Shown here: piece after piece, positions 843 to 56,392 of the stretch
Layout of the letters: every line of letters starts with the position of its first letter
Position numbering within the stretch: the first letter of the stretch is position 1
DNA from: a virus
Lineage: Duplodnaviria > Heunggongvirae > Uroviricota > Caudoviricetes
Direction: 5' to 3' (one strand)
Virus record (IMG/VR): IMGVR_UViG_3300027628_000007
DNA length: 64,000 bases
The notes under the pieces: generated by a model
Told to the model about the DNA's origin: nothing
The model's input: only the letters and a program-made list of their open reading frames with translations
The model's database searches: none
Translations under genes and position numbers: made by a program

Positions 843-2150
843 TCACTCTCCATAGTTAATGTCTTCAATGCCTTTATCATGTCGAATACCTTTGAATACA
901 GGGAAACGAAGTGACAGTTGACCAGTTTTCTCATCTGTTGATTCTTCGAAGAATTGTACTTCGATGATTTTTCCTACAATCTCATCTGGATTGTTGATGA
1001 ATTTTTGACGTTCATCAATTGTAAATCCACTACCACAACCTACTAAATTACCTTTATACTCAACATTAATACGACCTAGCAATCCTTCAAATTGACCGTC
1101 AATAGATTTCTCTACACTCATACATAGAAGGTCTGCTGTCTTAAATTTCTTGACTTTTAATAGACCGTCAGTACGTTTGTTGAGATATAAACCATCAGCA
1201 GTGTTGACCATTAATCCTTCATGACCGTTCTCTTCTACCCACTTCATGAAGTGTGCAATCATTTCTTTATTTGTTCCTTCATACAATACTGGTAGAATAT
1301 GGATATTAGCTTGACCTGCTACATGTTGTTCTAGCACGCCCAATTGATTTCTACGCTTCTCATATGTAAGTTTAGATTTTCCATCGTAAAACTCTGCTAC
1401 TGGTAACATATCAAAGATATGAAACTCTAAATCTTTCTTTTCACCATCTTTACGCACAACCTTTTGTGTAGCTCTGAATAGCTTATCAGATGGTAAGTTC
1501 TCTGTATTGATAAGTAAAAGCTCTCCATCATATACATATCCTTCTGGTAGATTCATAAACTGTGCTTCTAAATCAACCATGTCAAAGATTGGTTGCCCTT
1601 GACGTGTGAAGAATTTAATTGTATTGCCTTCACGAATCGCAACACATCGGTTTCCATCCAGTTTAAGAGTGATAAAGAATTTACCTGTTACTTTCGCTTC
1701 TTTCTTAGCAAATGATTCTGCTAACATTACAGCGAATGCAGGAATCGTACCTTTGCCGTAAATCTTATTTACAGTCTTTTCAGAGATTCCAAGTTTTAAA
1801 TCCTTTGTTACAAACTTCTTGATAAACTCTGCAATATGTTCTTCATGCTTATTAGCAAACTCTTGAATCATATGTATAGTAAAATCACGACCACTATTGT
1901 TTTCTTCTACATATGTAAGTAAGTGGTTAAAGTCTTGGATTGGTTGATAGTTCGCATCGCCTTTCAACACAATTTCTTTACTCATCTTCTTAGTTGAGAT
2001 ACCTGTTGTGATGAATGAATTAAGAAGGAAGTTTAGGGCTTTGAGAATATCCTCATCACCCTTATGTCGTTTTAAGATAGCTTCCTTACCTGTCTTTGCA
2101 GACGTTTCTTGTAGCTGTGAAAATACACCATAGATTTTATTGATATCCAA
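843..2150 (-). CDS. ATP-dependent DNA ligase (T4 gp30-like)
   Basis: Motif I KLDGNR (adenylation lysine), motif V EGLMVN...LLKVKK. The N-terminus INKIYGVFSQL...KEAILKRH resembles the T4 ligase N-terminus. Apparent TTG start. Confidence 0.85.
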   Translation of the reverse strand: MDINKIYGVFSQLQETSAKTGKEAILKRHKGDEDILKALNFLLNSFITTGISTKKMSKEIVLKGDANYQPIQDFNHLLTYVEENNSGRDFTIHMIQEFANKHEEHIAEFIKKFVTKDLKLGISEKTVNKIYGKGTIPAFAVMLAESFAKKEAKVTGKFFITLKLDGNRCVAIREGNTIKFFTRQGQPIFDMVDLEAQFMNLPEGYVYDGELLLINTENLPSDKLFRATQKVVRKDGEKKDLEFHIFDMLPVAEFYDGKSKLTYEKRRNQLGVLEQHVAGQANIHILPVLYEGTNKEMIAHFMKWVEENGHEGLMVNTADGLYLNKRTDGLLKVKKFKTADLLCMSVEKSIDGQFEGLLGRINVEYKGNLVGCGSGFTIDERQKFINNPDEIVGKIIEVQFFEESTDEKTGQLSLRFPVFKGIRHDKGIEDINYGE

Positions 2151-2168: not shown

Positions 2169-2774
2169 TTATTTATTTCGTTTTGTTGTGATTAGTTCAT
2201 CCACTAATCCATAGTTGAATGCATCTGTTCCAGAGAAGTACCAATCAGAATGATATTTGTTTTTCTCATCCATGATATGTTTTGGAAGATTGGACACAGA
2301 TAGCAAGTACCCATCATATGTATCTTGAAGATTTTGAATCTCAACTAAATCATCTTTTAATTGAGTTAGTTTTCCATGAAGACCTGTTGCAACCTCATGG
2401 TACATGAATCGTGCCATTGGGTGAGCAAAGCGTTTGTGACCTGCTGAAAAGATTACTAATCCTGCACTCATTGCTTTGCTGTAGCAGTATGTGTAAACTG
2501 GTGTTTCAGATGAGTCAATCACTGCTGTTAATCCAAATCCGTCATATGCACTTCCACCATATGAGCTAACAGTTAAATGGATTGGCTCACGCACATAGCT
2601 AGGGTCTTCTTTCTGTTTCTTATCATCGTGGCGATTAACTGCTAGAATACCAGTGACGATATCTTTAACAGAGGATTCAGTAACATTTTCATTCAAGATG
2701 AAATCACGTTTAATCGTAGATGTTGATGCCTTTGTCTCTTGGTTTTTAGTCTCGTTATTTGTATTGTTTGTCAT
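2169..2774 (-). CDS. ClpP-family (S14) serine peptidase homolog
   Basis: GxAxSAG-type nucleophile context (KAMSAGLVIFSAG) and an MYHEV segment corresponding to the ClpP MIHQP histidine region. Confidence 0.65.
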   Translation of the reverse strand: MTNNTNNETKNQETKASTSTIKRDFILNENVTESSVKDIVTGILAVNRHDDKKQKEDPSYVREPIHLTVSSYGGSAYDGFGLTAVIDSSETPVYTYCYSKAMSAGLVIFSAGHKRFAHPMARFMYHEVATGLHGKLTQLKDDLVEIQNLQDTYDGYLLSVSNLPKHIMDEKNKYHSDWYFSGTDAFNYGLVDELITTKRNK

Positions 2775-2810: not shown

Positions 2811-3104
2811 TTAGTTTTGATGTTCTCTGAATGGTTCTGGTTTTACAGTGGCTCTATCAATATTGCTTGACCTAAGGATTAACTCTTCACCAGTTGGAGA
2901 TTCAGTACCAAACCATTCACGCTGTTCAAGCAGGGTGATAATTCTATCAGATGCTTCATCTGCATTCTCCCAATTAACTGCAAGACCCTCTACATAACTA
3001 CCGTCTTTCATTGCAAAGATAACTATGTAGTCAAAGGTCGGCTTAACCTCTTCAATTTTCTCTTCTTCCTTTTTACCAAACCACTTTTTAAATGTTTCAA
3101 TCAT
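2811..3104 (-). CDS. hypothetical protein (97 aa)
   Basis: ORF track; RBS present. Confidence 0.6.
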   Translation of the reverse strand: MIETFKKWFGKKEEEKIEEVKPTFDYIVIFAMKDGSYVEGLAVNWENADEASDRIITLLEQREWFGTESPTGEELILRSSNIDRATVKPEPFREHQN

Positions 3105-3116
3105 TCCAATTCCTCC

Positions 3117-4115
3117 TTAGTGTGCTAGAGTATCTGCTTCACGCAGTAACTCTAGTTTGTCAAACATATCTTTTCCTACTTGTTTCATAAGCTTGTCACG
3201 ATTAGCTCTTTCATCAAGTAAGTACATATGAAACTGAATCAGAGTTGTTGCTTGATGTATAAATGCGGTATTAAATCCTAGTCGTTTAAGGACATGCACT
3301 GCTAGTTGAGCAGAGACATGTTCATGACCAATGAAGTTTGCATATCTAGATGGCTCACCTTTACGATTCTTAAAGTTCTTACAGAAATGCTTACCTGTAT
3401 CATGGAGCATCGCAACCCACAACATAAGCTCTTTATCTTGACCATGATAGTTATTGAATACATAGTCGTAAACGTGATATGTATGACGGCTTACAGAGAA
3501 TGCGTGATACTTTGAATCTTGTGCCATATCTAAGATGTATATGAATATTTCTGGAATAACTCTTGCAAGTTCCTCCATGATTCTGTATCCCATGTTATTT
3601 AACATGACTTGCTTAGTTATGTATTCTCTTTGAGCTTCTGGGAAGTTCTTATCTACAAAGCTGTAATCAAACTCAATCTCATCCCAACCTTCACTAAAGA
3701 TAGGTACTTGAAGATTTTTGTACATCTTTTTAATCACATCATATGGTACAGTTCTTTCTCTCACATGATTGAATGTTACTGCTGTTTTGAATGGAGTTGT
3801 CATGTAAACAACTTTCTTATGTACGCCTTTAGGTAATTGTTGCAGTAATCCTTTTCGCTTCTTACGACTGATATTAGTAGCATCATAGATTACGCTTTGC
3901 CCATCTTTCAACGCTTTCTTTGTACGTTTCGCCATTTCTTGGAAAATCATTGCAGGGTCGGCTTGGTCATTAACATCTCCATGAATCTCTTGTCGAAGAT
4001 TGTCAGATGATAACCAAAGTGCATCATCCCCATTTTCATTTGCATATGTGGACTTCCCAGATGCAGGAAGACCCACTAGCATTGTAAATGTTGGTTTAAA
4101 GATTTCGATTTCCAT
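3117..4115 (-). CDS. bifunctional polynucleotide 5-prime kinase (P-loop) / HD-domain phosphoesterase (RNA/DNA end-healing enzyme)
   Basis: N-terminal Walker A GLPASGKST followed by an SSD catalytic Asp context, as in T4 Pnk-type kinases. C-terminal HD signature (H...HDTGKH...GHEH...D). Confidence 0.7.
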   Translation of the reverse strand: MEIEIFKPTFTMLVGLPASGKSTYANENGDDALWLSSDNLRQEIHGDVNDQADPAMIFQEMAKRTKKALKDGQSVIYDATNISRKKRKGLLQQLPKGVHKKVVYMTTPFKTAVTFNHVRERTVPYDVIKKMYKNLQVPIFSEGWDEIEFDYSFVDKNFPEAQREYITKQVMLNNMGYRIMEELARVIPEIFIYILDMAQDSKYHAFSVSRHTYHVYDYVFNNYHGQDKELMLWVAMLHDTGKHFCKNFKNRKGEPSRYANFIGHEHVSAQLAVHVLKRLGFNTAFIHQATTLIQFHMYLLDERANRDKLMKQVGKDMFDKLELLREADTLAH

Positions 4116-4171
4116 TTAATCACTCCTATGTATGTATTATATCATTATTTTTTGTTTTTGTGCAAGCATTT

Positions 4172-5449
4172 TTATTCTGTTGCTGATTCTTCTTCTTCAA
4201 TGTCAAGGACATCATCTGCTTTAATGATACCTTCTAAGACTTTGAAGTTAAATGACTTCTGTTTGAATGCAGAGAATTTCTCTCTGTTCTCAATACGTAC
4301 AATTACACCTTCACGTAAATGTGTTTTACCGATTGGGTCTGCACCATCTACATGAGCGTTTACACGTTTCATCAAGTCATCAGCAGTTGTAAACTTAAAT
4401 GAATCTAACTCTGGGCAAATCTTAACTCCCATTTGTTCACAACGAAGTTTAACTAAGTGCCAAGGGTACTCAACAACCTGTCCATCTTCGTTCGTCATTG
4501 TCATGCGGTATACATAAATATCGCTTTGACCTACTCCACAACCGTATGTAAATCGTGTCTTATCGCCATATGTCTTGATAAACTCTTTATCTTTCGTTTT
4601 CTTATTATCGCATTCTGGCATAATAAGTGTATCTTGGTTTACATATCCTACAACTTCATAGAATACTTCTTCACCTTTATGTAATTTACCGTCAAAGAAA
4701 TCATGCCATTGCTTTCTAAACTCGTTGCTACCGTAGTAACCGCCACCAAATTGCGTAGTGTTTAAAGTCACACGTCTAGTACCTGTTACATAATCCCAAA
4801 CTTTTGTTGGCTTAGTCTTGATGCCAATCTTATTTAAGAATTTAGCAAACTTTGATTTATGCTCTTTGACTGTGTGAGCAGTACGTTGAGATGTTCCATG
4901 AAGTTTTAAAGAGATTACACAGTCATCGCCTTCTTTGAAGCTACGAGTATTGTAAGCTAGTTGAGCTGTATCAATATGCTGTTCAAAGAATGGGTAATTA
5001 ACCACATCTTCTTTCTTTTGCTTCTCTTTGTTCTTGCCTTGTGGCATATCTTTTCGTGGTTTAGACTTTGGTACATACTTCTCACAGATTACCACACCTT
5101 TTAAGATATCAATTGTGTCACCCTCTTTAAGAGTATCAATTTTGACAAACTTTGCAAGAGATGTGATTGGCATGAATAAACCATCTGATTTCTCTCCACG
5201 TAAACGGATTGTAGTTACATGACGCTTTTCGTCATCTAAGTAACCGCCTTGTGTACGAAGTAATTTGTTTTCTTCCGCATATTCTAGACCTAATTTACCG
5301 TCTGTAGGGAAGTAAACACCTAAGTCTCCTTCTTTTACATCTAAGCTAACAATTACATCGTTACCGAATAGTTCTGCAACTTGTAATCTATCTGCATTAG
5401 AATGCTTTCGTAGTTTTTTAACAGTTGTAATATAAGCTTGGTAAGCCAT
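4172..5449 (-). CDS. RNA ligase, Rnl2-like nucleotidyltransferase domain with N-terminal OB-like domain
   Basis: Motif I KLHG (the KxHG form is typical of Rnl2/RNA-editing ligases), motif III FYEVVG, motif IV EGVIVR, motif V KQKSFNFK. The window already has a separate DNA ligase. Adjacent to the Pnk-HD gene. Confidence 0.7.
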   Translation of the reverse strand: MAYQAYITTVKKLRKHSNADRLQVAELFGNDVIVSLDVKEGDLGVYFPTDGKLGLEYAEENKLLRTQGGYLDDEKRHVTTIRLRGEKSDGLFMPITSLAKFVKIDTLKEGDTIDILKGVVICEKYVPKSKPRKDMPQGKNKEKQKKEDVVNYPFFEQHIDTAQLAYNTRSFKEGDDCVISLKLHGTSQRTAHTVKEHKSKFAKFLNKIGIKTKPTKVWDYVTGTRRVTLNTTQFGGGYYGSNEFRKQWHDFFDGKLHKGEEVFYEVVGYVNQDTLIMPECDNKKTKDKEFIKTYGDKTRFTYGCGVGQSDIYVYRMTMTNEDGQVVEYPWHLVKLRCEQMGVKICPELDSFKFTTADDLMKRVNAHVDGADPIGKTHLREGVIVRIENREKFSAFKQKSFNFKVLEGIIKADDVLDIEEEESATE

Positions 5450-5502: not shown

Positions 5503-5531
5503 ATTATATCATTATCTTTTGCTCTTGTCTA
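5503..5531 (-). promoter_or_regulatory. sigmaA-type promoter, family copy (TAGACA-17-TGaTATAAT), upstream of RNA ligase gene
   Basis: Plus-strand text attata-tcattatcttttgctcttg-tctaca; minus strand reads -35/-10 with conserved spacer. Confidence 0.6.
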
Positions 5532-5750
5532 CAAAAAAAGAAAAGTTTTTTATTTTTCTTTTTTATTTTCTCTATCTTACGAAAATTAACCAACATAGAC
5601 CGATGGAAAATAGAGCTATTAGTGCACCGTATCCTAAGAAACATATTATAAAAAACATTACTTTAAGATACTCTTGCCACAACTCACGCATGACAATCAC
5701 CTCCCATATTTTTCTTTATTGTAGCAAAAATTGGATTAGAAGTCAATACT

Positions 5751-6620
5751 CTAATCCAATAATTTTGATAAATCTACGACACCATATCCTAAGTTATAGC
5801 TGTGGTCATGATTACCCATATTCATAATTTTCTCTTTTACTTGTGCAGGTGTTAACTCAATACCTTGATTACGGTTGTGAGAAATAAGCAATGCGATTGC
5901 TCCTGCTACTAATGGTGAAGCCATAGATGTTCCAGACATCCTAGCATACTTGCCATCTTTAAATGTGCTTAATACATCAATTGCAGGTGCAGAGATATCT
6001 ACTTGTGGTGCTCTATTAGAGAATGGACAATGATTTAAATCTTTGTCAACTCCACCTACTGCAAATACTTCATCCATAAATGCAGGATAATCCACTTCTG
6101 GCAATCCCATATTTCCTACTGCACATACAATCTTAATTCCTTGTGCATGAGCTTCTTCTAATCGTTCTTGAAGTCGTACTGGAAGACCTCCACGAACGCC
6201 TAGACTCATACATAATACATCTACTTTGAAGTTGATAGCTAATGTAATTCCATCCATAACACTCGCCATACTGCCTTCGCCTTTTTCGTCTAATACTTTT
6301 GCAATATATAAATCAACATTAGGTGCAACGCCTGTCTTCGCACCTGCAATTAATCCTGCAACATGAGTTCCATGACCATACTCATCTGTGATATCATTTG
6401 TTTTTTCAAACATATTTATACCGTACTTGACTTTTCCTTTTAGGTCTGGATGGTTCTCATCCATTCCAGTATCAATCACCATAACTTTAACGCCTTCGCC
6501 TTTTGTTTTCTTCCAAGCTTCTTTGACGTTAATAGCTTTTAAACTCCAATCAAGCCCTTTGGGTAATTTATCCAATACTTCAATATTCTTAGTTTCATTT
6601 TGTGTCATCATATGTTGCAC
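5751..6620 (-). CDS. subtilisin-like serine protease (peptidase S8)
   Basis: Catalytic triad contexts VIDTGMD (Asp), HGTHVAG (His), GTSMASP (Ser). Confidence 0.9.
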   Translation of the reverse strand: MQHMMTQNETKNIEVLDKLPKGLDWSLKAINVKEAWKKTKGEGVKVMVIDTGMDENHPDLKGKVKYGINMFEKTNDITDEYGHGTHVAGLIAGAKTGVAPNVDLYIAKVLDEKGEGSMASVMDGITLAINFKVDVLCMSLGVRGGLPVRLQERLEEAHAQGIKIVCAVGNMGLPEVDYPAFMDEVFAVGGVDKDLNHCPFSNRAPQVDISAPAIDVLSTFKDGKYARMSGTSMASPLVAGAIALLISHNRNQGIELTPAQVKEKIMNMGNHDHSYNLGYGVVDLSKLLD

Positions 6621-6624
6621 ACTC

Positions 6625-6900
6625 CTATTTGCTTTCTTTGATTGTTACAGTTCCTTCCATAACTCCATATGTACTATCTTCTTTAAACTTATAAGTCTCT
6701 GCTTTATCTTGTTCTGTCATTGGACGTGTAAGATACCAAAGAGCAGATTCTTTCCATGTGATATTAACTAGCTTTTCACCTTTAGGGAGATTGACTGTGT
6801 AACTTCCACCAAAACTCTTCGCTCCTATTTGACATCCAGAAAGACCTACTAAACCTGCAATTGCTGTTAATCCGATTAAAAACTTTTTCATCATAATCAC
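6625..6900 (-). CDS. lipoprotein (signal peptide with lipobox LSGC)
   Basis: MIMMKKFLIGLTAIAGLVGLSGC: hydrophobic h-region followed by Cys. Confidence 0.7.
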   Translation of the reverse strand: MIMMKKFLIGLTAIAGLVGLSGCQIGAKSFGGSYTVNLPKGEKLVNITWKESALWYLTRPMTEQDKAETYKFKEDSTYGVMEGTVTIKESK

Positions 6901-7523
6901 TCCTTATCAGTATCTAGCGGTGCTAGTAATTTAAATTCACTCTTTAAACTATTGTAAATTGGTTGGAAGAATTTCTTAATTGTATCCCAATCCTTCATAG
7001 CCATAACACTTCCTAAGAAACGGTTTGCACATTCGTAATCTACGATTCTACCATGCTTTGCAATTTGAATCCCAAACATCAAGATTCTGATTGAATGAAA
7101 CATGCTCTTTTTGCCGATATAATCTTCACCAATCGCTAATTTCTTTTTACATTTAACAAAACTGTTAGAAGAAATCCCAGAGATATTTCTACGTAATGCT
7201 TCTAGATTTGGTTCAAAATGCTCACGATATTTACTATCTTCTTTTTGGAAGATACATTCTAGGTAGCTAATATGTTGCTCTTTAATCTTCTTAATAAACA
7301 GTGCTTCGCTTACTACGTGAATAGAGACATCATCACGCTCAAACGTATAATCAAGTTCTAGGTCATGACTGTCTGCAACAGCCATGAAATCATAATCTGA
7401 ATCCGCATTGTCAGTTCCGTAGACCCTAGAGCCATACGGATAGATTGCCAATAGTTTTTCATTAATGTTTCTTTTTGTTTCCCACATGTTATCACTCCTA
7501 TAGTTGACCCATTGCGTAGTCAT
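6897..7523 (-). CDS. minimal nucleotidyltransferase (Pol-beta superfamily, MNT-like)
   Basis: hGS...G...SDYDF motif (IYPYGSRVYGTDNADSDYDFMAV). Confidence 0.65.
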   Translation of the reverse strand: MTTQWVNYRSDNMWETKRNINEKLLAIYPYGSRVYGTDNADSDYDFMAVADSHDLELDYTFERDDVSIHVVSEALFIKKIKEQHISYLECIFQKEDSKYREHFEPNLEALRRNISGISSNSFVKCKKKLAIGEDYIGKKSMFHSIRILMFGIQIAKHGRIVDYECANRFLGSVMAMKDWDTIKKFFQPIYNSLKSEFKLLAPLDTDKE

Positions 7524-8217
7524 AATGTTCTTTTAATTTAATGAAGTCTTTCTCATTTCCTCCCATATCTGGGTGATGCTTTTTAGCTAATTTTCTGTAA
7601 GCTTTTTTGACATCATCTTTCGTTGCCCCTCTAGACAATCCTAAGAATTTCAATGCAGAATCAAGTCGAGATGTGTAAGATTGCTGTTGAGTTTGACTGT
7701 TGAATCCACGACTATATTGTTGCTTTTGTCGTCCAAAGAAGTCTCTATAAATTCTTTCCCATTCTTCATTCGTTCTTCTATCCTGTTCCTCATACATCTT
7801 TCTTCTTCTCTCTTCCTGTCGTCTTCTTTCTTCTGCTTTCATTCTTTCCCATTCTCTTTGTATTCTCTCACGCTCTGCACGCTGTTTTCTCATGTATTCC
7901 TCATGCTCACGCTGTTTAGCTTCACGTTCTGCCTGCCTACGCTTTTCTTCCTGTTCCCATTGTATCTCTCGACCCTCTCTGCCTACGTTATGTATAATTG
8001 TTAGGTTGCCTAGAATAATAGGTATCCAGATAAACATAGAAAGCGTAAAGATAGCGGATGATACAAAGAATATAGAGAAGATATGTAAGATAAAGAATAT
8101 CATAGGTGTAAACGTTGCAATGAAACTCTCATTAGCATCCATTGCAATATCGTATTTCTTAGCACTTCCATTATACAGATGGTAATAAAACCTAAACATC
8201 GAAAAATATTTCTTCAT
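7498..8217 (-). CDS. membrane protein with Arg/Glu-rich linker and C-terminal J domain (DnaJ-like, HPD motif)
   Basis: C-terminus KKAYRKLAKKHHPDMGGNEKDFIKLKEHYDYA; two TM helices near the N-terminus. The track start at 8247 is TTG; the ATG at 8217 with AAAGGAGTG is preferred. Confidence 0.75.
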   Translation of the reverse strand: MKKYFSMFRFYYHLYNGSAKKYDIAMDANESFIATFTPMIFFILHIFSIFFVSSAIFTLSMFIWIPIILGNLTIIHNVGREGREIQWEQEEKRRQAEREAKQREHEEYMRKQRAERERIQREWERMKAEERRRQEERRRKMYEEQDRRTNEEWERIYRDFFGRQKQQYSRGFNSQTQQQSYTSRLDSALKFLGLSRGATKDDVKKAYRKLAKKHHPDMGGNEKDFIKLKEHYDYAMGQL

Positions 8218-8246
8218 GTTATTCACTCCTTTATGTTTGTAAACCA

Positions 8247-8275
8247 ATTATATCATTATCATTTATGTTTGTCCA
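8247..8275 (-). promoter_or_regulatory. sigmaA-type promoter (TGGACA-17-TATAAT), upstream of J-domain gene
   Basis: Conserved spacer ...AAATGATAATGA TATAAT. Confidence 0.6.
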
Positions 8276-8839: not shown

Positions 8840-9193
8840 TTAATATTCTACGACTCTTAGACTTAATCCTTCTTTTTTAGCTAAATCTATCATGTGTTTA
8901 GTTCCTTTACTTTTACCATCCCAAAACGCCACACATGCATCAGCATATTTTGCCATGTCCCAATTGCGTATGAAGCCTGCTTGCTTACCAAGACCATCCC
9001 AATCTGGAATGAATCTTTTAATCTTGCAACCATGTTCTCTTGCAAATCTTTCTCCCAGAGAATCAGCACCTCTAGCTCCACCAGAGACAATTTCAACTTC
9101 TGTCAAATCATATTTAGATAAAAGGTGGAGCAGTTTGAATTTCAATAATCTATAGCTGTCAAAGTCTCTGCTCCCTGCAATAATTAATCTCAA
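8840..9193 (-). CDS. SLOG/DprA-like Rossmann-fold protein (DUF2493-like)
   Basis: N-terminal IIAGSRDF...VSGGARGAD pattern typical of Smf/DprA-LOG superfamily phage proteins. Confidence 0.5.
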   Translation of the reverse strand: MRLIIAGSRDFDSYRLLKFKLLHLLSKYDLTEVEIVSGGARGADSLGERFAREHGCKIKRFIPDWDGLGKQAGFIRNWDMAKYADACVAFWDGKSKGTKHMIDLAKKEGLSLRVVEY

Positions 9194-15399: not shown

Positions 15400-15428
15400 A
15401 TTATATCATTATAGTTTGCTTTTGTCAA
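15400..15428 (-). promoter_or_regulatory. sigmaA-type promoter, perfect TTGACA-17-TATAAT, upstream of thioredoxin gene; 10-bp-stem hairpin (15373..15398) directly downstream
   Basis: attata tcattatagtttgcttt tgtcaa. Confidence 0.7.
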
Positions 15429-18862: not shown

Positions 18863-19320
18863 TATCCTTCAATCTCCTTCACTCGTTTAATAAATTCTTC
18901 AACATCACTCTTAGTACCATCATTCTCAAATTTGAGTAAAAGAGGTACGTTAAACTGTTTAGAAATCTTAACTCCTGCTTCTGCAAACATTGGTATCCAG
19001 TTGCGATTACCGCTAGATGCGACAGCTTTCATATTGAGGAAGTTACCTCTTCTAAGGAATTTAGCTGTAGAGTCTGGGATATTACCCATGCCTGTTGTAT
19101 ATGTAACAAGTACAAAAGGCTCTTTTACTATTAATCCTTCTTCGATTTTGACAGCTTCTAAACCCACTTTATTGATGAATCTCTCAACGTTGCCTGTGAA
19201 GCTGTCATAGACTAGAATCATTGAATCACCCCTTTCAAGAATTAATTCGAGAGACACAACATCTTGTATCTCTCGGAATGACATACTACTAATTATATCA
19301 TTATAATTAGCTCTTGTCAA
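18862..19320 (-). CDS. nrdI: NrdI flavodoxin-like protein
   Basis: N-terminal MILVYDSFTGNVERF matches the NrdI FMN-binding signature (Y.S.TGNT.RF); located upstream of nrdE. Confidence 0.8.
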   Translation of the reverse strand: MTRANYNDIISSMSFREIQDVVSLELILERGDSMILVYDSFTGNVERFINKVGLEAVKIEEGLIVKEPFVLVTYTTGMGNIPDSTAKFLRRGNFLNMKAVASSGNRNWIPMFAEAGVKISKQFNVPLLLKFENDGTKSDVEEFIKRVKEIEG

Positions 19321-19830: not shown

Positions 19831-20322
19831 TTAATCGAATGACCAGTCATATCCTTTACATTGCCAACCATTCTTGCAAGCTCTTGATATGGTAGAGAAG
19901 TGTACACCGATTTCTCTTGATGCATGAGCGATACTTTCATATTCTCTCACTAATTTACCATCCTTCATTTGCTTTACAGTTTTCTTTTGAGCATCATGAT
20001 TTCCTACGCCCCAAGACTTACTTGCATTGTTTTCATTTGCCATCCATTGCAGATTGTCTGCATGATTATTTCTAGGGTCATTATCCTTATGGTCAACTGT
20101 ATCATGGTTATTAGGATTATCTAAGAATGCTAGTGCAACTACTTGATGCACCGAAACATTCTTCCTTGTACCATTGTGATATAGTGTTACAACTTGGTAG
20201 CCCTTTTTACCTCTGTCACAAGACTTCAAAGCCTTGCCTTCTTTATTTAGGATATTCCCATCATATGTGACACTATATGATGGGAATCCTAGAAAGTCTA
20301 AGCTCTTACTTCTTGTCTGCAT
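19831..20322 (-). CDS. HNH homing endonuclease with C-terminal HTH
   Basis: VDHKDNDPRNNHADNLQW (HNH); C-terminal IENR/HTH-like ...IAHASREIGVHFSTISRACKNG. Confidence 0.85.
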   Translation of the reverse strand: MQTRSKSLDFLGFPSYSVTYDGNILNKEGKALKSCDRGKKGYQVVTLYHNGTRKNVSVHQVVALAFLDNPNNHDTVDHKDNDPRNNHADNLQWMANENNASKSWGVGNHDAQKKTVKQMKDGKLVREYESIAHASREIGVHFSTISRACKNGWQCKGYDWSFD

Positions 20323-21136
20323 CTACAATCGCCTGTCCTGTTTGTACAGTAACCCAACCATGTTGTAAGCGTGCTTCCGCTTCGATTTTTTGGATTAACT
20401 GTGGTGTAATTGATTCTTGAATCTTTTTGTTCGCATCTGCTTCGGCTTGTGCATCAATCATTTTCTTCTGTGCATTACCTTGTGCTTCAATTTTTTGTTT
20501 TTCAGCAGTGATTTCAGCTTTTTGTTTCTCAACTTCTAAAGCTTTAACCTCTTGCTGTTTGTTTACTACTTGTTGGATAGCTTCTTTAGTCTGTGCATCG
20601 TATTCTGGTGTTCCTAATACTACAGATGTAACAGTGAATCCTTTCTTACCAACTTTCTTAGTGAAGGCTTCCATAATCTTAGTTTGAATCTCTGCACGAT
20701 TAGAGTTAAGTTCTAAGATTGTGTATTTAGATGCCACTTCCGATGCTACACCCACCATACTGTTACGTAAGTACCCTTTCTCTAAAGCTTCTGGTTTCTG
20801 TCCACGCCACTCACGATAAATGTCATCAACCTTCTGTGGGTCGTTGTGGTAGTCAAACACGATTGGAATTGTGATAGTCTTCGTATCTGCTGTTGGTAAT
20901 GATAGATTGTATTTTACTGTCTCTACTGAAATTGGGTACTCTGTAATCTTTGCAAATGGCGATACGAAGTTTAATCCTTCTGTTAATACTTCACTTTGTA
21001 CTCCACCTTGCGTGCGGTCAAATACTACCCCTGCATGTCCTTGACTTACAACCTCTGTAAAGTTTAACCATGCTGTCAATCCAACTACTCCAACTACTCC
21101 TGCAATAATTCCTCTTTTAGCTACTCGATTCAACAT
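20306..21136 (-). CDS. SPFH/band-7 (stomatin/prohibitin-like) membrane protein
   Basis: N-terminal TM helix, SPFH core (HAGVVFDRTQGGV...), C-terminal Ala/Glu/Lys-rich coiled coil. Confidence 0.75.
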   Translation of the reverse strand: MLNRVAKRGIIAGVVGVVGLTAWLNFTEVVSQGHAGVVFDRTQGGVQSEVLTEGLNFVSPFAKITEYPISVETVKYNLSLPTADTKTITIPIVFDYHNDPQKVDDIYREWRGQKPEALEKGYLRNSMVGVASEVASKYTILELNSNRAEIQTKIMEAFTKKVGKKGFTVTSVVLGTPEYDAQTKEAIQQVVNKQQEVKALEVEKQKAEITAEKQKIEAQGNAQKKMIDAQAEADANKKIQESITPQLIQKIEAEARLQHGWVTVQTGQAIVDADKK

Positions 21137-21314: not shown

Positions 21315-21343
21315 TATGCACTTATTATATCATTATTTTTTGT
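21315..21343 (-). promoter_or_regulatory. sigmaA-type promoter (TAGACA-17-TATAAT)
   Basis: attata tcattattttttgtgct tgtcta. Confidence 0.6.
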
Positions 21344-23537: not shown

Positions 23538-23567
23538 ATTATATCATTATCTTTAGCGTTTAGTCAA
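23538..23567 (-). promoter_or_regulatory. sigmaA-type promoter (TTGACT-18-TATAAT) upstream of topo II A subunit gene
   Basis: Family spacer ...AAAGATAATGA. Confidence 0.5.
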
Positions 23568-25583: not shown

Positions 25584-26354
25584 CTATGCTACTAATTTAT
25601 TTTTAACTAATTGCATGATTAGGTTGTCGATATGTAATTTAAGCTCTTCATTTGGTTTCTGTGAGCGGTACTTATCTTTCAGATGTACGAATTGTGCATC
25701 GTGGATATGATTAACTAGACGTTCAAAGCTTTCTTGATTCCAGAAACCATATTTGATTTCATGCATAAAGAATACTTCTTCGCCTTCATATCGCAATGCT
25801 TTCTCTGGATTCTTAAATCCTAATGCTTCATACTTGATTGCAAAGTCTAACAAGCGATAAGCGTGCTGTGCTTGCTTTGTATCGAATCCAAATAGGTCTA
25901 CTAATACTTGTGTACCTTCTGTACCTTTAGGCAACAGCTTCATCTTTTGTTTAAATGTACCGCCAAGAGCATCAAATAGCTTTGGAAGGTTCATGTTAAA
26001 GATGTCATAACGTAAATCATAAAGCTCTTTTAATTCCTTGCTATCTTCAAGATACAGCTCTTTAGAGATTAAAGGCTCTAAGTAATTCAAGTTAGCCTTC
26101 CAGAACAAGTCTGGGAGCTTACGGATGTCGTGCACATCATAATCTGCATCTGCACCGATGATGCTTTCTGCAAACATCTTCTGCTTGTACAGCTCTTCAA
26201 ATGTAGGAGTTACAAATGCTTTGTAATCCTTGTCAGATGCAAGGATAATCTTGCCACTGATTTTCTTTTCACCTGTTGCTAGATTGTAATTGTTTGACCC
26301 TACTAATGCTTGTACTAATACTTCTCTTCCTAAGATTGTTTTCATGTTTTTCAT
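25584..26354 (-). CDS. hypothetical protein (256 aa)
   Basis: ORF track; own promoter copy upstream. Confidence 0.6.
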   Translation of the reverse strand: MKNMKTILGREVLVQALVGSNNYNLATGEKKISGKIILASDKDYKAFVTPTFEELYKQKMFAESIIGADADYDVHDIRKLPDLFWKANLNYLEPLISKELYLEDSKELKELYDLRYDIFNMNLPKLFDALGGTFKQKMKLLPKGTEGTQVLVDLFGFDTKQAQHAYRLLDFAIKYEALGFKNPEKALRYEGEEVFFMHEIKYGFWNQESFERLVNHIHDAQFVHLKDKYRSQKPNEELKLHIDNLIMQLVKNKLVA

Positions 26355-26374: not shown

Positions 26375-26403
26375 ATTATATCATTATCATTATCTATTGT
26401 CAA
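26375..26403 (-). promoter_or_regulatory. sigmaA-type promoter, perfect TTGACA-17-TATAAT
   Basis: attata tcattatcattatctat tgtcaa; immediately downstream of terminator 26413..26447. Confidence 0.7.
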
Positions 26404-26923: not shown

Positions 26924-27421
26924 TTACACCTCATACTTTCTTAATAGTTTTACAATTTTGTCAAGATGTGCTTTCTTATGTACACTGTCTGCTTTCCATG
27001 CCATACCAGACTCCATAATCCAGTTTGCATCAATAGGATGCCAACGTACCCATTTGCTAAATGTTACATATGTATTTTCAGAATCCAAACCTGTGTGCTC
27101 TGCTAGTTTCATAATCTGTTCATCTGTCACAGACTCATGAAACATTACGCTGAATGATTCACCATCTTTATGACCGTAACAGCAGAATTTTGTTTTCAAT
27201 CCAATTTCGAAATTGATTACGTCTAGCATCTCAATCATTTCTGGGTCAATCTCATCATATGGAATACCATGAGCGTTGAAGCGATGACGTAACGCTTTCT
27301 CAATCGTACTCTCTTTCATATCGTGGAAGCAACCATGACAAAGATTAGCCTTATGTGCATTACTTCCTTTTGTTACCTTTTCATAAGTTTGACAATTACC
27401 GCAACCGATTTCTACTTTCAT
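26924..27421 (-). CDS. hypothetical zinc-finger protein (CGNC...CHGC)
   Basis: Two CxxC pairs near the N-terminus. Confidence 0.55.
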   Translation of the reverse strand: MKVEIGCGNCQTYEKVTKGSNAHKANLCHGCFHDMKESTIEKALRHRFNAHGIPYDEIDPEMIEMLDVINFEIGLKTKFCCYGHKDGESFSVMFHESVTDEQIMKLAEHTGLDSENTYVTFSKWVRWHPIDANWIMESGMAWKADSVHKKAHLDKIVKLLRKYEV

Positions 27422-28026
27422 TATGCTGTTTCCTCCTGTTTACGTAGTTCATCTCGTACTTCCATTAACACTTGACCTAATAGGTTCATGCCTTTCCACT
27501 TCTTAGGGTCTTCTACGTCTGGATGGTCTTTATGCATACCGATTCCCCAGATTCTATCAGAAGGGCTTGCTTCCACAAGCATCTTATTACCTGTTGCAAG
27601 AATACATTTTTTCAAGAATGGTACAGAGAATTTATCCATTAACACTTCTTTGTAGATTCTCTTACGATTCTTCTGCCAAACATCTTCCTTGAATGGAATG
27701 TCATTGCTACGACCTAATAGCTTACAGTAACTTGGTGTATCGGCTTCTAAAATATCTTTTGCAACGTCTGTCGCACCAAATAACATAGCTTTACGATACA
27801 TTACCGCCTGCTCTGACCATAAGAATCGTATGCCTTGATGCCTGAATGGTGAGAAGTTAAAGTTTGAGTACACGCTGTCACCCATCCAGAAGAAGATAAA
27901 CTTATCAGTTTCTCTTGCATTCTGTCCAAGACCTCTTTTAACTCTACCGATTTTCGCATCAGTTTCACGCTTTTGCTTCAAGAATCGTTCTTGGTCTGCT
28001 TTTGTTAATTTAGGTTTCTCTCTCAT
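27421..28026 (-). CDS. NADAR (YbiA/DUF1768) domain protein - ADP-ribose processing N-glycosidase
   Basis: Collinear match to E. coli YbiA: FFW..G..SNF...PF......F...E...M.KA.LF......IL....P...K.LGR.......W......EV...KF.....LL.TG...LVE.SP.D..WG.G. Confidence 0.8.
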   Translation of the reverse strand: MREKPKLTKADQERFLKQKRETDAKIGRVKRGLGQNARETDKFIFFWMGDSVYSNFNFSPFRHQGIRFLWSEQAVMYRKAMLFGATDVAKDILEADTPSYCKLLGRSNDIPFKEDVWQKNRKRIYKEVLMDKFSVPFLKKCILATGNKMLVEASPSDRIWGIGMHKDHPDVEDPKKWKGMNLLGQVLMEVRDELRKQEETA

Positions 28027-28027
28027 G

Positions 28028-28495
28028 TTAACCTCCTAGTAATGATAATAGTCTAGTAATGTCTTTTGGTTGATGCCCATCATATTCTGGTGCAAATTCT
28101 AATTCTTTCACTTTAAATAAATCATAATCTTCTTCTCTGTAATGATATGAATACTGACCTTCTGGTGTATCGACTCCAACAATAAATGACCCATCAAACA
28201 TTGTGCCATCTGAATGTTGCCAAGACTTCCATGCTTTGTCTTTGTATGTATGACAGATTACTAAGAATAACATCATGCGATGATAATACAGTTCATCAAA
28301 AGTGTGATAGCCATCGCTAAACTCTCCAACTCTCATAACTAAATCAGCAGGAATATGATTATGTGTTCCGTCTAAAGTAACGGTTGAAACATCTTTTCTA
28401 GACCCAAAATTTTCAACATCTGTCTTAGTTATCTTATATATTGTTGGTAAATCTGATTTGAAAATAACCTTGTTGCCTGCTTTAAATTTACTCAT
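28028..28495 (-). CDS. hypothetical protein
   Basis: ORF track. Confidence 0.6.
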   Translation of the reverse strand: MSKFKAGNKVIFKSDLPTIYKITKTDVENFGSRKDVSTVTLDGTHNHIPADLVMRVGEFSDGYHTFDELYYHRMMLFLVICHTYKDKAWKSWQHSDGTMFDGSFIVGVDTPEGQYSYHYREEDYDLFKVKELEFAPEYDGHQPKDITRLLSLLGG

Positions 28496-31994: not shown

Positions 31995-32204
31995 CTATTC
32001 TTCTATTAACTTAAATTCAAATGATTCTAAATACTGCTTTACTCTATGACCTCTGACTTCACCGATGAAAACATAATCGTAATACCCTTCTTCTTCGTCA
32101 ATGATTCCATCTTCTACAAATTCAATCTCTGCACCAGTTTTAAAATAATTATCGTCAGATTCAAGTGCTATTGCTTTTGCTCCAATTTTAATATCCAGTT
32201 TCAT
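31995..32204 (-). CDS. hypothetical protein
   Basis: ORF track. Confidence 0.55.
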   Translation of the reverse strand: MKLDIKIGAKAIALESDDNYFKTGAEIEFVEDGIIDEEEGYYDYVFIGEVRGHRVKQYLESFEFKLIEE

Positions 32205-32784
32205 ATGTATCTTCCTCCTTTGGAAATTTAATATTTCTTAACGTATGTGGTATAACCAACTTCTTACCAATCTGTTCAAGTCTTATGTAGCCCTTCCTAG
32301 CAAGCGACTCTAGCATTCTCATTACTGTATCTCTATTCTTTATCTTGATACCATCTGCTAGAGCATCAATGTCAGTAGTAGTTTTCCAATAACCAACATC
32401 TGAATGCATTACTATGAAAGCGTATAGCTTGTATTCCTTCTTAGTCATTGTATCATTATCTTTTACTTTTGTCCACAACTCTTCTAAAATAAAATTGAAA
32501 TTATCACTTCTTTTTTCCATCACGTTATACCTCGGACTATATTTATTTATGAGATAGAGTTCATAGACTTTCATTTCGCTCTCACTTTGCAACTCCATGT
32601 ATTCTACGACTGCACACTCATCATAGCACTCTCTAGGAAGGTGACCTTCCTTAGAGAAGTGCTCTTGCTCTAGTCTTCGTTTCAGATTGTTAGTTCTGCC
32701 TATGTATATAATATCATTATGTTTATCTAGAAATCTGTAGACATAGAAACTATTCTTCGTCAATCTCTTCCAACAACTTCTCAA
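32188..32784 (-). CDS. GIY-YIG homing endonuclease-like protein with C-terminal winged-helix
   Basis: FYVYRFLDKHNDIIYIGRTNNLKRRLEQH (GIY...YIG...R...E/QH) and YELYLINKYSPRYN. Start approximate. Confidence 0.8.
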   Translation of the reverse strand: MRSCWKRLTKNSFYVYRFLDKHNDIIYIGRTNNLKRRLEQEHFSKEGHLPRECYDECAVVEYMELQSESEMKVYELYLINKYSPRYNVMEKRSDNFNFILEELWTKVKDNDTMTKKEYKLYAFIVMHSDVGYWKTTTDIDALADGIKIKNRDTVMRMLESLARKGYIRLEQIGKKLVIPHTLRNIKFPKEEDTYETGY

Positions 32785-35902: not shown

Positions 35903-36111
35903 TTAACATCATCCTTTTCTTTCTCTTTTTTCTCTCTTCTACGATTCTTCCAACCTTCAAACTTATGGAAGCTCTTAGGATGGATTGTCTCCCAGAATAA
36001 CCCAACTAATCCAAGGGCTACTCGTAATAATGCTAGAATAATAATAACTGCAATCATCCATCCTACTAGTTTTGCAAGCATCCACAATGTTGTTAAGACT
36101 GCTGTTGTCAT
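35899..36111 (-). CDS. small membrane protein with basic C-terminus
   Basis: TM helices then KNRRREKKEKEKDDVK. Confidence 0.55.
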   Translation of the reverse strand: MTTAVLTTLWMLAKLVGWMIAVIIILALLRVALGLVGLFWETIHPKSFHKFEGWKNRRREKKEKEKDDVK

Positions 36112-36872
36112 TTAAGTGTTCCTCCTTTTGTGATTATCTTAATGTTTTCCATCACTTCTTCCATATCAATTTGATAATCAAACATACCAATTACTTCTTG
36201 GGCTGTTCGAATACCATGTAAGTATTCCTTAATCTCTGCAATCTGTCTCTTATGCTCTGCAACAAATTCATGATGCTGTTTAATCTTAATCAAGTGTGGC
36301 ATAATAGTTGTCTTGGCAGAATGAAAGAATCGTGCATGTTCTGGATATCTTTTACGACATGCTTTGAAGAATGGCAGGAAGAATTTCTCTGTTTCCAATG
36401 CCTGTCTCAATTCTTTCTCTGGCGTTGCATCTTTTAATGTGCCAAAATTATTCTTTCTATCTACTGTTTTAATTTTAGCCATTCGGACATTTTGCAGTAT
36501 GATGTCTAAGTACGCCTGCATATTCTCTTCTTTCTTGTAGTCGATGTTTGGCAACTTTGTTACTCCCATTACTGTATCAGCAACCTCTTGACCAAACAGA
36601 CTTTTAACAGCTTCATAGTTGATGTCTGGGACATCTTCGATTGCATCATGCAGTATACATGCGGTCAAAGTTACTTCATCGGTTTCACCATGATTAATTA
36701 AATCCTGTGTTGCATCTACCAAGTGATAGTAATAGTGACGACCATCATGTCGTTTATATCCGTTATCAGCGTTCATAACTGATATCATCCAATTAAGAGC
36801 TTTTAACGCTTCTTTACAACCCATCTCTGCTAAATCCATTTGCAACTGTACTACACGACTTTCTTTCGCCAT
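36108..36872 (-). CDS. RelA/SpoT-family HD hydrolase (small alarmone hydrolase, Mesh1-like)
   Basis: HD-domain motifs RHDGRHYYYHL..., ILHDAIEDV, and FGQEVADTVMGVTKL, as in the SpoT (p)ppGpp hydrolase domain. No synthetase domain. Confidence 0.8.
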   Translation of the reverse strand: MAKESRVVQLQMDLAEMGCKEALKALNWMISVMNADNGYKRHDGRHYYYHLVDATQDLINHGETDEVTLTACILHDAIEDVPDINYEAVKSLFGQEVADTVMGVTKLPNIDYKKEENMQAYLDIILQNVRMAKIKTVDRKNNFGTLKDATPEKELRQALETEKFFLPFFKACRKRYPEHARFFHSAKTTIMPHLIKIKQHHEFVAEHKRQIAEIKEYLHGIRTAQEVIGMFDYQIDMEEVMENIKIITKGGTLK

Positions 36873-43688: not shown

Positions 43689-43717
43689 ATTATATCATTA
43701 TTATTGATGCCTGTCAA
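43689..43717 (-). promoter_or_regulatory. sigmaA-type promoter, perfect TTGACA-17-TATAAT
   Basis: attata tcattattattgatgcc tgtcaa. Confidence 0.7.
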
Positions 43718-46386: not shown

Positions 46387-46415
46387 ATTATATCATTATC
46401 TTTGATGTTTATCAA
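46387..46415 (-). promoter_or_regulatory. sigmaA-type promoter (TTGATA-17-TATAAT) upstream of RecA-like gene
   Basis: Family spacer. Confidence 0.55.
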
Positions 46416-56363: not shown

Positions 56364-56392
56364 AATATACCATTATCTTTTCTCTATGTCAA
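56364..56392 (-). promoter_or_regulatory. sigmaA-type promoter (TTGACA-17-TATATT) at end of nadR
   Basis: Family spacer. Confidence 0.55.

Follow-up and report, generated by a model that had tools for sequence, protein, structure and literature searches.

A phage RNA ligase and a kinase-first Pnk-HD enzyme as the probable core of an RNA heal-and-seal repair cassette

Introduction

RNA repair is the classic answer of phages to host defences that cut transfer RNA (tRNA), and more RNA-cleaving defences keep appearing. Phage kinase/phosphatases of the HD type have been known since 2005. The RM378 PNK is described as the only enzyme in which a 3'-phosphatase had been assigned to such an HD domain (PMC1997131), and members of the Rnl5 family of RNA ligases were noted in 2015 in phages of Aeromonas, Caulobacter, Mycobacterium, and Sinorhizobium (PMC4408790). 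The Rnl5 signature is an N-terminal OB domain followed by a C-terminal nucleotidyltransferase domain with no C-terminal appendage (PMC4408790, PMC7261155), and the physiological role of these ligases has been described as uncharted. In this analysis, a stretch of 64,000 nucleotides (nt) from IMG/VR virus record IMGVR_UViG_3300027628_000007 (Caudoviricetes), referred to below as the window, was studied at a locus that encodes a putatively Rnl5-like RNA ligase and an end-healing enzyme, Pnk-HD, with a predicted polynucleotide kinase domain and an HD domain. The two genes are probably the central part of a phage cassette for RNA heal-and-seal repair, which would mend RNA cut by host ribonucleases. 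An Rnl5-like ligase is here tied genetically to end-healing enzymes.

The window DNA was approximately 90% identical to that of Bacillus phage Kirov and 82% identical to those of PBC2 and the Thrax phages. These relatives are siphoviruses of approximately 165 kb of the Bacillus cereus group and belong to the subfamily Andregratiavirinae. A RlaP-like nucleotidyltransferase was found as a third recurrent partner of the ligase, which the original prediction, a reading of the window from its letters, did not contain. To our knowledge, none of the three enzymes of the cassette has been characterised.

Organization of the ligase and Pnk-HD genes

The ligase gene (5449..4172, 425 residues) and the Pnk-HD gene (4115..3117, 332 residues) were both located on the minus strand, as was every sizeable open reading frame (ORF) in this part of the window. 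The ligase gene was the first and the Pnk-HD gene the second in transcription order, with a gap of 56 nt between them. The original prediction had placed the pair at 3117–5449 with exact coordinates, but the order it gave, Pnk-HD followed by the ligase, was reversed, since on the minus strand the ligase lies upstream. The pairing of the two genes was not a matter of chance, as both had many homologues and the synteny was found in other phages and prophages.

Kinase domain of Pnk-HD

Pnk-HD (3117..4115, minus strand) was matched by the Pfam families AAA_33 and HD and was predicted to consist of an N-terminal polynucleotide 5'-kinase and a C-terminal HD phosphoesterase. The kinase domain (residues 1–155; 3651..4115, minus strand) matched AAA_33 at residues 11–138 with an E-value of 1e-18. 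It contained the P loop (G15..G20-K21-S22), the segment S37-D38..R41, the segment D78-A-T80-N81, and the lid residues R119 and R121. In total, 666 homologues of Pnk-HD were obtained in a database search, and the best 120 were all full length. An alignment of 24 homologues was used as the family profile, in which the motifs GLPASGKST (K21, S22) and SSD (S36, S37, D38) were kept; residues K21, S37, D38, R41, D78, T80, R119, and R121 were invariant and S22 was nearly so (at least 90%). PHROG 6931 matched Pnk-HD as two pieces, with the kinase falling on the C-terminal half of the profile.

When the family profile was compared with the PDB, the kinase domain of Clostridium thermocellum Pnkp (CthPnk; E 4e-15), seryl-tRNA(Sec) kinase (PSTK; 8e-15), T4 Pnk (4e-10), and Pnkp1 (2e-8) were matched, and the best solved-structure matches of the kinase were polynucleotide or tRNA kinases. 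Residues Lys21, Asp38, and Arg41 of CthPnk are essential, Asp38 being the general base for the 5'-OH; Arg41, Ser37, and Thr80 grip the first phosphodiester of the acceptor strand, and Arg120 and Arg123 grip the gamma phosphate of the nucleoside triphosphate (NTP) (PMC3902929). In a residue-level alignment, Lys21, Ser22, Ser37, Asp38, Arg41, Asp78, Thr80, Arg120, and Arg123 of CthPnk corresponded to K21, S22, S37, D38, R41, D78, T80, R119, and R121 of Pnk-HD, respectively. All three residues that would contact the acceptor phosphodiester (S37, R41, and T80) were therefore among the invariant ones, and this conservation argues for a polynucleotide rather than a small-molecule substrate.

Alternatively, the substrate of the P-loop domain might be a small metabolite or a nucleotide, and nucleotides or signalling nucleotides might be hydrolysed by the HD domain; the fusion gene and the ligase gene would then be neighbours without sharing a repair pathway. 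AAA_33 is a broad family, weaker matches were obtained to 6PF2K, Zeta toxin, APS kinase, and shikimate and gluconate kinases, and HD domains hydrolyse many nucleotide substrates. However, the acceptor contacts shared with CthPnk and T4 Pnk were invariant, the top matches were all polynucleotide or tRNA kinases, and the gene was tightly and widely linked to an RNA ligase, which makes such a role very improbable. A kinase specific for nucleosides or deoxynucleoside monophosphates, named in the original prediction as the alternative, is likewise not what these relatives and residues suggest.

HD domain of Pnk-HD and domain order

The HD phosphoesterase domain (residues 195–332; 3120..3533, minus strand) matched Pfam HD (PF01966) at residues 210–303 with an E-value of 4e-6, above the gathering score. 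Residues H204, H211, H238-D239, H264, H296, D328, and H332 were the key residues of the domain and were invariant in the 24 homologues. The closest solved relative of this half, found with the family profile, was the HD domain of the class II A-adding/CCA-type enzyme of A. aeolicus (E 1e-6), and the NCBIfam CCA-adding enzyme model TIGR02692 matched the same half with an E-value of 7e-10. A HAD domain (DxDxT acylphosphatase) was not matched in Pfam, NCBIfam, and PDB profile searches of Pnk-HD; the C-terminal domain was of the HD type.

When the Pnk-HD family was aligned by hhalign with the HD halves of two enzymes, RM378 PNK and F368_080 from a Campylobacter phage, a match with a probability of 96.5% and an E-value of 7e-10 was obtained over 127 columns, and all of the His/Asp motifs were aligned. 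A BLASTP comparison of RM378 PNK with Pnk-HD gave matches for the kinase (3e-11) and the HD domain (3e-3) in swapped order. In RM378 PNK the HD domain spans residues 35–94 and the kinase residues 189–325, and in F368_080 the kinase is C-terminal, whereas in Pnk-HD the kinase match (11–138) precedes the HD match (210–303). Judged by these alignments, Pnk-HD is a domain-swapped homologue of HD-Pnk in which both predicted active sites are intact.

The kinase–HD fusion, its GLPASGKST and SSD motifs, and the reversed domain order had all been called correctly in the original prediction. Its description of the architecture as non-canonical was overstated. An exhaustive search in which the HD half was the sole query yielded 1,298 cluster representatives at an E-value of 1e-3 or below and 154 at 1e-10 or below, and the best 150 matches were almost all proteins of 300–340 residues with the HD domain at the C-terminus. 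The kinase-first order is the dominant architecture of this HD subfamily and is not rare; in addition, the orthologues in Kirov, PBC2, and the Thrax phages were already annotated, and the T4/PrrC analogy was in print.

RNA ligase

The ATP-dependent RNA ligase (4172..5449, minus strand) was predicted to have an Rnl5-like build, with an N-terminal OB domain (residues 1–125; 5075..5449, minus strand), a nucleotidyltransferase domain (residues 150–412; 4214..5002, minus strand), and no C-terminal domain. The nucleotidyltransferase motifs were assigned by inspection and by collinearity with Naegleria gruberi RNA ligase (NgrRnl), motifs IV and V being collinear in HMMER alignments. They comprised motif I (K182-L-H184-G185, in the context LKLHGTS, with the K182 codon at 4904–4906), motif Ia (T224/R225), motif III (E265), motif IIIa (Y312/Y314/R315), motif IV (E380-G381..R385), and motif V (K396/K398). 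All of these residues were invariant in an alignment of 33 homologues with 62–92% identity. Beyond K398, the protein had a tail of 27 residues, of which the last 13 were acidic and modelled with low confidence, and it lacked a C-terminal appendage.

At least 7,993 homologues of the ligase were found in a database search. PHROG 968, annotated as RNA ligase, matched with an E-value of 1e-87, and the Pfam PHA02142 OB-fold family (PF21189) matched residues 7–95 with an E-value of 7e-9. The match to Pfam RNA_ligase (PF09414) at residues 177–394 scored 24.9 bits, just under the cut-off of 27. In the comparison with PDB sequences, the sole match was NgrRnl, the structural prototype of Rnl5; the OB domain aligned with NgrRnl residues 9–124 in a phmmer search (E 2.5e-4). 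The nucleotidyltransferase domain searched alone against PDB sequences matched no ligase, and it is the fold comparison alone that ties this domain to Rnl5, Rnl2, and Rnl3.

For the fold comparison, an AlphaFold (AF2) model was built from the 33 homologues. Its mean predicted local distance difference test score (pLDDT) was 76.6, with low confidence at residues 129–148, 232–238, and 413–425. In a Foldseek search of the PDB, NgrRnl was matched over the full length with E-values of 7e-16 to 4e-14 and target-normalised TM-scores of 0.64–0.70. T4 Rnl2 was matched by the nucleotidyltransferase domain only (E approximately 5e-7), with TM-scores of 0.42–0.57 when target-normalised and 0.33 when query-normalised. 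Archaeal Rnl3 gave a partial match (E approximately 1e-4, target-normalised TM-score approximately 0.3), and human DNA ligase I a partial match at rank 27 (E 4e-3, target-normalised TM-score 0.19). The best Foldseek matches were all RNA ligases, which speaks against the DNA ligase or capping enzyme family that the original prediction had named as an alternative.

Taken together, the sequence matches and the model suggest that the ligase is Rnl5-like and represents a divergent branch. The original prediction of an N-terminal OB domain and a KxHG motif I was borne out by the PF21189 match and the KLHG sequence, but its assignment to the Rnl2 type was not. Motif I of T4 Rnl2 is KIHG, and the motif I histidine was the only Rnl2-like feature of the window ligase. 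Rnl2 identity was rejected, as the Rnl2 C-terminal domain was missing and T4 Rnl2 resembled only the nucleotidyltransferase part.

In NgrRnl, Arg4, Asp53, and Lys121 are the OB-domain residues that touch the ATP gamma phosphate and the metal. Of these, Asp53 corresponded to the invariant D50. Lys121 of NgrRnl was aligned with I121, an invariant K124 being three residues off, and Arg4 was beyond the alignment. The OB domain alone also resembled the tRNA-binding OB folds of MetRS-C, Trbp111, EMAP II, and the PheRS beta subunit (Foldseek ranks 21–43). This resemblance, seen in the model, may be taken as a lead towards tRNA, not as proof.

Conservation of the cassette

The neighbourhood of the ligase was analysed in 80 viral contigs carrying a ligase homologue (46–70% identity), with neighbours identified by tblastn and counted within 6 kb on the same strand. 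Pnk-HD was found near the ligase at 67 of the 80 loci and a RlaP-like transferase at 56. Many of the loci were near-duplicates. After dereplication at 95% ligase identity, Pnk-HD was present in 36 of 44 clusters and the transferase also in 26; at 80% identity, the corresponding numbers were 27 and 20 of 31 clusters. The commonest order was ligase, transferase, and Pnk-HD. Large phages and prophages of Bacillus and Clostridium frequently carry the cassette. An overlap between the ligase and Pnk-HD genes was seen in a B. velezensis prophage (8 nt) and in a C. botulinum contig (20 nt).

The DNA ligase, the ClpP-like protease, and the S8 protease, which flank the pair in the window, were found near the RNA ligase at only four, two, and one of the 80 loci, respectively, and were rejected as members of the module. 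The order S8 protease, ligase, Pnk-HD, ClpP, and DNA ligase was also found in the B. velezensis prophage and in a Halobacillus contig.

Several loci carried variants of the cassette. In two metagenomic phages of 180 kb and 214 kb, a Pol-beta nucleotidyltransferase of 263–273 residues with a sub-threshold RlaP match split the ligase from Pnk-HD. In the jumbo Bacillus phage G (L005, 3950–6616), gp264 was a kinase-first Pnk-HD of 425 residues and was directly followed by a ligase of the Rnl1 type, gp265, so that healing enzymes with the kinase first are found together with ligases of more than one family. In Campylobacter phage F368, the HD-Pnk gene was located approximately 1 kb from a gene annotated as a putative RNA ligase. 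A further metagenomic phage (L026, 6001–12853) carried the ligase, a RlaP-like transferase of 333 residues, an HD protein of 452 residues, and a NAD-dependent DNA ligase, without Pnk-HD; the 452-residue protein was called CCA-adding-enzyme-like from sequence motifs only.

Of the 44 related loci scanned, 13 had tRNA genes within 6 kb of the ligase, mostly upstream of it. A tRNA-Ser(GCT) gene recurred 2–5 kb upstream of the ligase in one distant clade (L067–L088; for example L069, 1276–1366). Nine tRNA genes were found at one locus (L028, 116–2887) and a tRNA-Trp gene just downstream of the ligase at another (L082, 7572–7647).

Some of the sister phages (Thrax2, Thrax4, and Thrax5) have a second RNA ligase gene near the first (PMC9703825). 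No second RNA ligase was seen near the cassette of the window.

RlaP-like nucleotidyltransferases

According to a 2025 preprint, RlaP enzymes extend the 3'-OH of damaged RNAs by one or two nucleotides, an addition needed to restore over-damaged tRNA (PMC12776372). Whether phages rebuild RNAs that lost nucleotides is the question on which a RlaP-like partner of the ligase bears. The window contained two proteins of this type, NT1 (208 residues; 6897..7523, minus strand) and NT2 (256 residues; 25584..26354, minus strand), both with the GS...DxD core of the Pol-beta type.

In NT1, the Pfam Polbeta, RlaP, and NTP_transf_2 matches were all below their cut-offs, the RlaP score being 19.8 bits against a gathering threshold of 23, and PHROG 388 matched with an E-value of 1e-17. 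In L012, a homologue of NT1 (tblastn 2e-29) separated the ligase from Pnk-HD, and in L013 a homologue lay upstream of the S8 protease, the same position as in the window. The counterparts in Kirov and the Thrax phages were annotated as nucleotidyltransferases.

NT2 scored 22.6 bits against RlaP (PF10127), also below the cut-off of 23, and matched PHROG 388 with an E-value of 1e-23. In most distant cassettes, the gene that separates the ligase from Pnk-HD was a homologue of NT2, and the BLASTP E-values of NT2 to the transferases inside the L008 and L009 cassettes were 4e-18 and 1e-12, respectively. NT1 lay 1.4 kb and NT2 20 kb upstream of the ligase, so that neither was adjacent to it. No useful match of NT1 or NT2 was obtained among PDB sequences. 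NT1 is a probable accessory component that restores RNA 3' ends.

Close to NT2, a NADAR-domain protein (27421–28026, minus strand) and a WDGH-domain protein (28028–28495, minus strand) were encoded, with two ORFs of 160 and 165 residues between.

Expression signals

The strong Shine–Dalgarno sequence AGGAGTG was located 7 nt before the ATG of the ligase and 6 nt before the ATG of Pnk-HD. A promoter-like site upstream of the ligase (5503..5531, minus strand; TAGACA-17-TATAAT, with TG before the second hexamer) included ATAATGATATAAT at 5515..5503 and was identified by consensus match only. A similar site was located in the 56-nt gap before Pnk-HD (4136..4164, minus strand; TGCACA-17-TATAAT, again with TG before the second hexamer), with ATAATGATATAAT at 4148..4136.

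The 13-mer ATAATGATATAAT, in which TG is followed by TATAAT, occurred in 20 copies in the window with at most one mismatch, all on the minus strand, where chance would give 0.86. Besides the two sites above, examples were located at 8259..8247, 15412..15400, 19304..19292, 21336..21324, 23550..23538, 26387..26375, 43701..43689, and 46399..46387 (all minus strand). The motif lay shortly before many genes of replication and nucleotide metabolism, among them the gyrase and ribonucleotide reductase genes, and also preceded NT2 (26387..26375) and the unit formed by NT1 and the DnaJ-domain gene. It probably represents the type of promoter used by one temporal class of phage genes. A generic promoter and terminator scan of the window gave counts that were not above the shuffled expectation, and for this reason only the specific motif carries weight.

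The regulation bears on the possibility of programmed RNA processing, in which the enzymes would join RNA halves left by programmed cleavage, or circularise or mature phage RNAs, in the normal expression of phage or host RNAs. The ligase and Pnk-HD genes carry a constitutive-looking phage promoter motif like that of many window genes, rather than a stress-type regulator, and in eukaryotes tRNA splicing relies on RNA ligases that work with kinase/phosphatase enzymes (PMC6379707). However, a tRNA gene scan of the window found none, whether split, intron-containing, or other, and the phage systems for healing and sealing characterised to date all serve counter-defence. Processing of this kind is therefore distinctly improbable.

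Proposed function

The heal-and-seal assignment of the ligase and Pnk-HD is supported by the conserved linkage of their genes in distant phages. In the proposed mechanism, the HD domain of Pnk-HD would strip a 2',3'-cyclic phosphate or 3'-phosphate and leave a 3'-OH, and the kinase domain would move the gamma phosphate of an NTP onto the 5'-OH. D38 would serve as the general base, R41, S37, and T80 would grip the first phosphodiester of the acceptor, and K21, S22, R119, and R121 would grip the NTP-Mg. As an optional step, the RlaP-like transferase could add back lost nucleotides at the 3' end. The ligase would then be adenylylated at K182, transfer AMP to the 5'-phosphate, and join the ends; it would most probably act on ends held in a duplex-like arrangement, for example in a stem with a nick or in a folded tRNA. 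An RNA substrate, most plausibly tRNA, and a counter-defence purpose are further steps of inference from these predicted activities. The original prediction had compared the pair with T4 Pnkp and Rnl1: the heal-and-seal logic of that comparison is backed by synteny, but the Rnl1 analogy is functional at best, since characterised Rnl5 enzymes act on nicked duplexes and are not known to seal anticodon loops.

Several points weigh against this assignment. We know of no cognate host nuclease for the window cassette. The enzymatic activities are deduced from homology and conserved residues; for Pnk-HD in particular, the predicted structure (single-sequence AlphaFold) had a pLDDT of 40.7, and the evidence comes from sequence alone. 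The tRNA scan of the window was empty, and the cassette is surrounded by a replication and nucleotide-metabolism region, beside an ATP-dependent DNA ligase. The sole NCBIfam match of the ligase, TIGR02306 (RNA_lig_DRB0094) at residues 7–196, scored 59.9 bits, far below the cut-off of 151.15. His184 is invariant where motif I of Rnl5 has Asp. In NgrRnl this motif is 170-KLDG (PMC4408790), in which Asp172 contacts the catalytic metal through water and is non-essential, as the D172A mutant is still active (PMC7261155). The ligase has 425 residues against 340, with the approximately 85 extra residues including a disordered Lys-rich linker (residues 129–148) and an insertion after motif I, and its identity to NgrRnl was 16–19%. 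Because of the low TIGR02306 score, the motif I histidine, and the extra residues, the substrate preference of NgrRnl is not transferable to the window ligase. Characterised Rnl5 enzymes seal duplex nicks and not single-stranded loops, and the only phenotype known for DraRnl concerns radiation resistance and a delay in genome reassembly, which is a hint of DNA repair (PMC5397189).

A role in DNA repair or replication is the alternative on which some of these points converge. Pnk-HD would heal DNA breaks with 3'-phosphate and 5'-OH ends, and the ligase would seal ribonucleotide-tipped nicks, arising for example from RNA priming or ribonucleotide patch repair, beside the DNA ligase. Rnl5 needs RNA only on the 3'-OH side of the nick and accepts DNA elsewhere, and it is the loss of DraRnl that delays genome reassembly after irradiation (PMC5397189). 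The Runella HD-Pnk is called a DNA/RNA end-healing enzyme in the title of its report, the genes belong to the arm for replication and nucleotide metabolism, at a distance of two genes from the ATP-dependent DNA ligase, and the Thrax paper files them under DNA replication and repair (PMC9703825). However, the DNA ligase neighbour is lineage-specific, whereas the conserved partners are Pnk-HD and a RlaP-like transferase of an RNA-acting type. The L026 variant, by the motif judgement described above, exchanges Pnk-HD for a CCA-adding-enzyme-like protein, and tRNA genes are located near the ligase at 13 of the loci scanned. On this evidence a DNA repair role appears unlikely, and repair of cleaved RNA is the preferred assignment.

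A more specific form of the RNA repair assignment is tentative. The ligase, the RlaP-like transferase, and Pnk-HD could constitute a distinct RNA repair pathway that is widespread among large Firmicutes phages, with a ligase specialised for tRNA by its KxHG motif, its Trbp111/EMAP-like OB domain, and its insertions, and with a transferase that restores tRNAs which have lost nucleotides, as in RloC-type wobble excision. This is conceivable but rather doubtful at present; if true, the ligase clade would be a new tRNA-repair subfamily of RNA ligases and not a generic nick sealer.

Neighbouring genes and other features of the window

Upstream of the cassette, in transcription order and all on the minus strand, were a DnaJ-domain membrane protein (approximately 8247..7498), NT1 (7523..6897), a small lipoprotein-like ORF (6900..6625), and the S8 subtilase (6620..5751). 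Downstream of Pnk-HD were an ORF of 97 residues (3104..2811), the ClpP-like protease (2774..2169), and the ATP-dependent DNA ligase (2150..843), also on the minus strand. The protein encoded at 7498–8247 had N-terminal transmembrane segments, charged repeats rich in E, R, and K, and a C-terminal DnaJ-like motif, KKAYRKLAKKHHPD; its gene overlapped that of NT1 from directly upstream, and the two apparently formed one transcription unit. A hairpin with a T-run was located at 5760..5730 (minus strand), its upstream end overlapping the stop codon of the S8 gene. The interval between the S8 protease and the ligase (5560–5770, minus strand) also contained an unannotated ORF of approximately 40 codons with its own Shine–Dalgarno sequence, encoding the hydrophobic peptide MRELWQEYLKVMFFIICFLGYGALIALFSIGLCWLIFVR.

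Elsewhere on the minus strand, a NadR-like protein with a cytidylyltransferase-like domain and an AAA_28 kinase domain (56384–57412) was encoded near a PnuC-type nicotinamide mononucleotide transporter (57913–58653). The two genes look like a NAD+ salvage pair and could counter NAD-depleting defences; Kirov has, in addition, genes for nicotinate phosphoribosyltransferase and PRPP synthetase. A protein of 117 residues (8840–9193, minus strand) was a stand-alone YspA/YAcAr SLOG-domain protein (PF10686, E 1e-15), and this family is predicted to bind or process NAD-derived nucleotides. A protein of 254 residues with an HD_4 (RelA/SpoT-type) domain (36108–36872, minus strand) may be an alarmone or nucleotide hydrolase, and its gene adjoined that of a RecJ-like DHH/DHHA1 exonuclease (37382–39064). 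Two ORFs may encode homing endonucleases, an HNH_3-like ORF close to the ribonucleotide reductase genes (19831–20322, minus strand) and a GIY-YIG endonuclease (32188–32784, minus strand). A Band-7/SPFH protein (20306–21136, minus strand) was encoded just upstream of the HNH-like ORF, which it overlapped, and downstream of the gyrase genes.

Comparison with known systems

When the window ligase was compared with the Rnl5 enzymes DraRnl and NgrRnl (PDB code 5COT), the order of OB domain and nucleotidyltransferase domain, the lack of an appendage, the full-length fold, all of the motifs, and the D50/Asp53 pair were shared. The window ligase differs in having KLHG in place of KLDG as motif I, 425 residues in place of 340, and a TIGR02306 score below the cut-off. 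It is genetically coupled to an end-healing enzyme, whereas DraRnl is not, its operon partner being DR_B0095.

Pnk-HD shares with the HD-Pnk enzymes (RM378 PNK, Runella slithyformis HD-Pnk, and DR_B0098) a P-loop kinase and an HD domain related to that of CCA enzymes, and in both cases the gene is usually located beside that of an ATP-dependent ligase. In HD-Pnk, however, the HD domain comes first and the kinase second, the kinase identity is 24%, and the HD relationship was seen only by profile or weak BLAST matches. The partner ligase in Runella is also different; it self-adenylylates and joined none of the substrates tested.

The T4 system, in which Pnkp and Rnl1 repair tRNA-Lys cut by PrrC, likewise combines a phage 5' kinase, a 2',3'/3' phosphoesterase, and an ATP-dependent RNA ligase, and T4 Pnkp has its homologous kinase at the N-terminus, as does Pnk-HD. 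T4 Pnkp carries a DxDxT acylphosphatase in place of the HD metalloenzyme, and T4 seals with Rnl1 in place of an Rnl5-like ligase. Unlike in the T4 system, no target of the PrrC type has been identified in the Bacillus hosts. The association with an RNA ligase (56 of 80 loci) and the Pol-beta core are common to RlaP (PF10127) and the NT1/NT2 proteins, which differ from RlaP in their near-threshold but insufficient scores and in not being located beside the ligase.

The same genes in the same order are present in Kirov (Kirov_98/99), PBC2, Tsamsa, and Thrax1–5 (gp100/gp101/gp103), with protein identities of 89% to Kirov for Pnk-HD and 92% to Thrax3 for the ligase. In the Thrax paper, gp100 is listed as PNK, gp101 as RNA ligase, and gp103 as nucleotidyltransferase, and the precedent of T4 and PrrC for counter-defence is cited explicitly (PMC9703825); the Kirov paper lists both the ligase and the kinase genes. 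A literature text search for 'Pnk-HD', whose scope did not include Munir & Shuman 2017 and Burroughs & Aravind 2016, returned nothing relevant. The basic reading of the gene pair is therefore already known, having been published for sister phages, and the gain for the window is modest, consisting of a corrected ligase family and an extended module. The sister-phage annotations, 'polynucleotide kinase', 'RNA ligase', and 'nucleotidyltransferase', mention neither the HD domain nor its swapped position, and they leave out the affiliation with Rnl5 and the three-gene cassette; new here are the ligase family, the recognition of Pnk-HD as a domain-swapped homologue of HD-Pnk in which the sites are intact, the three-gene cassette, and the shared promoter motif.

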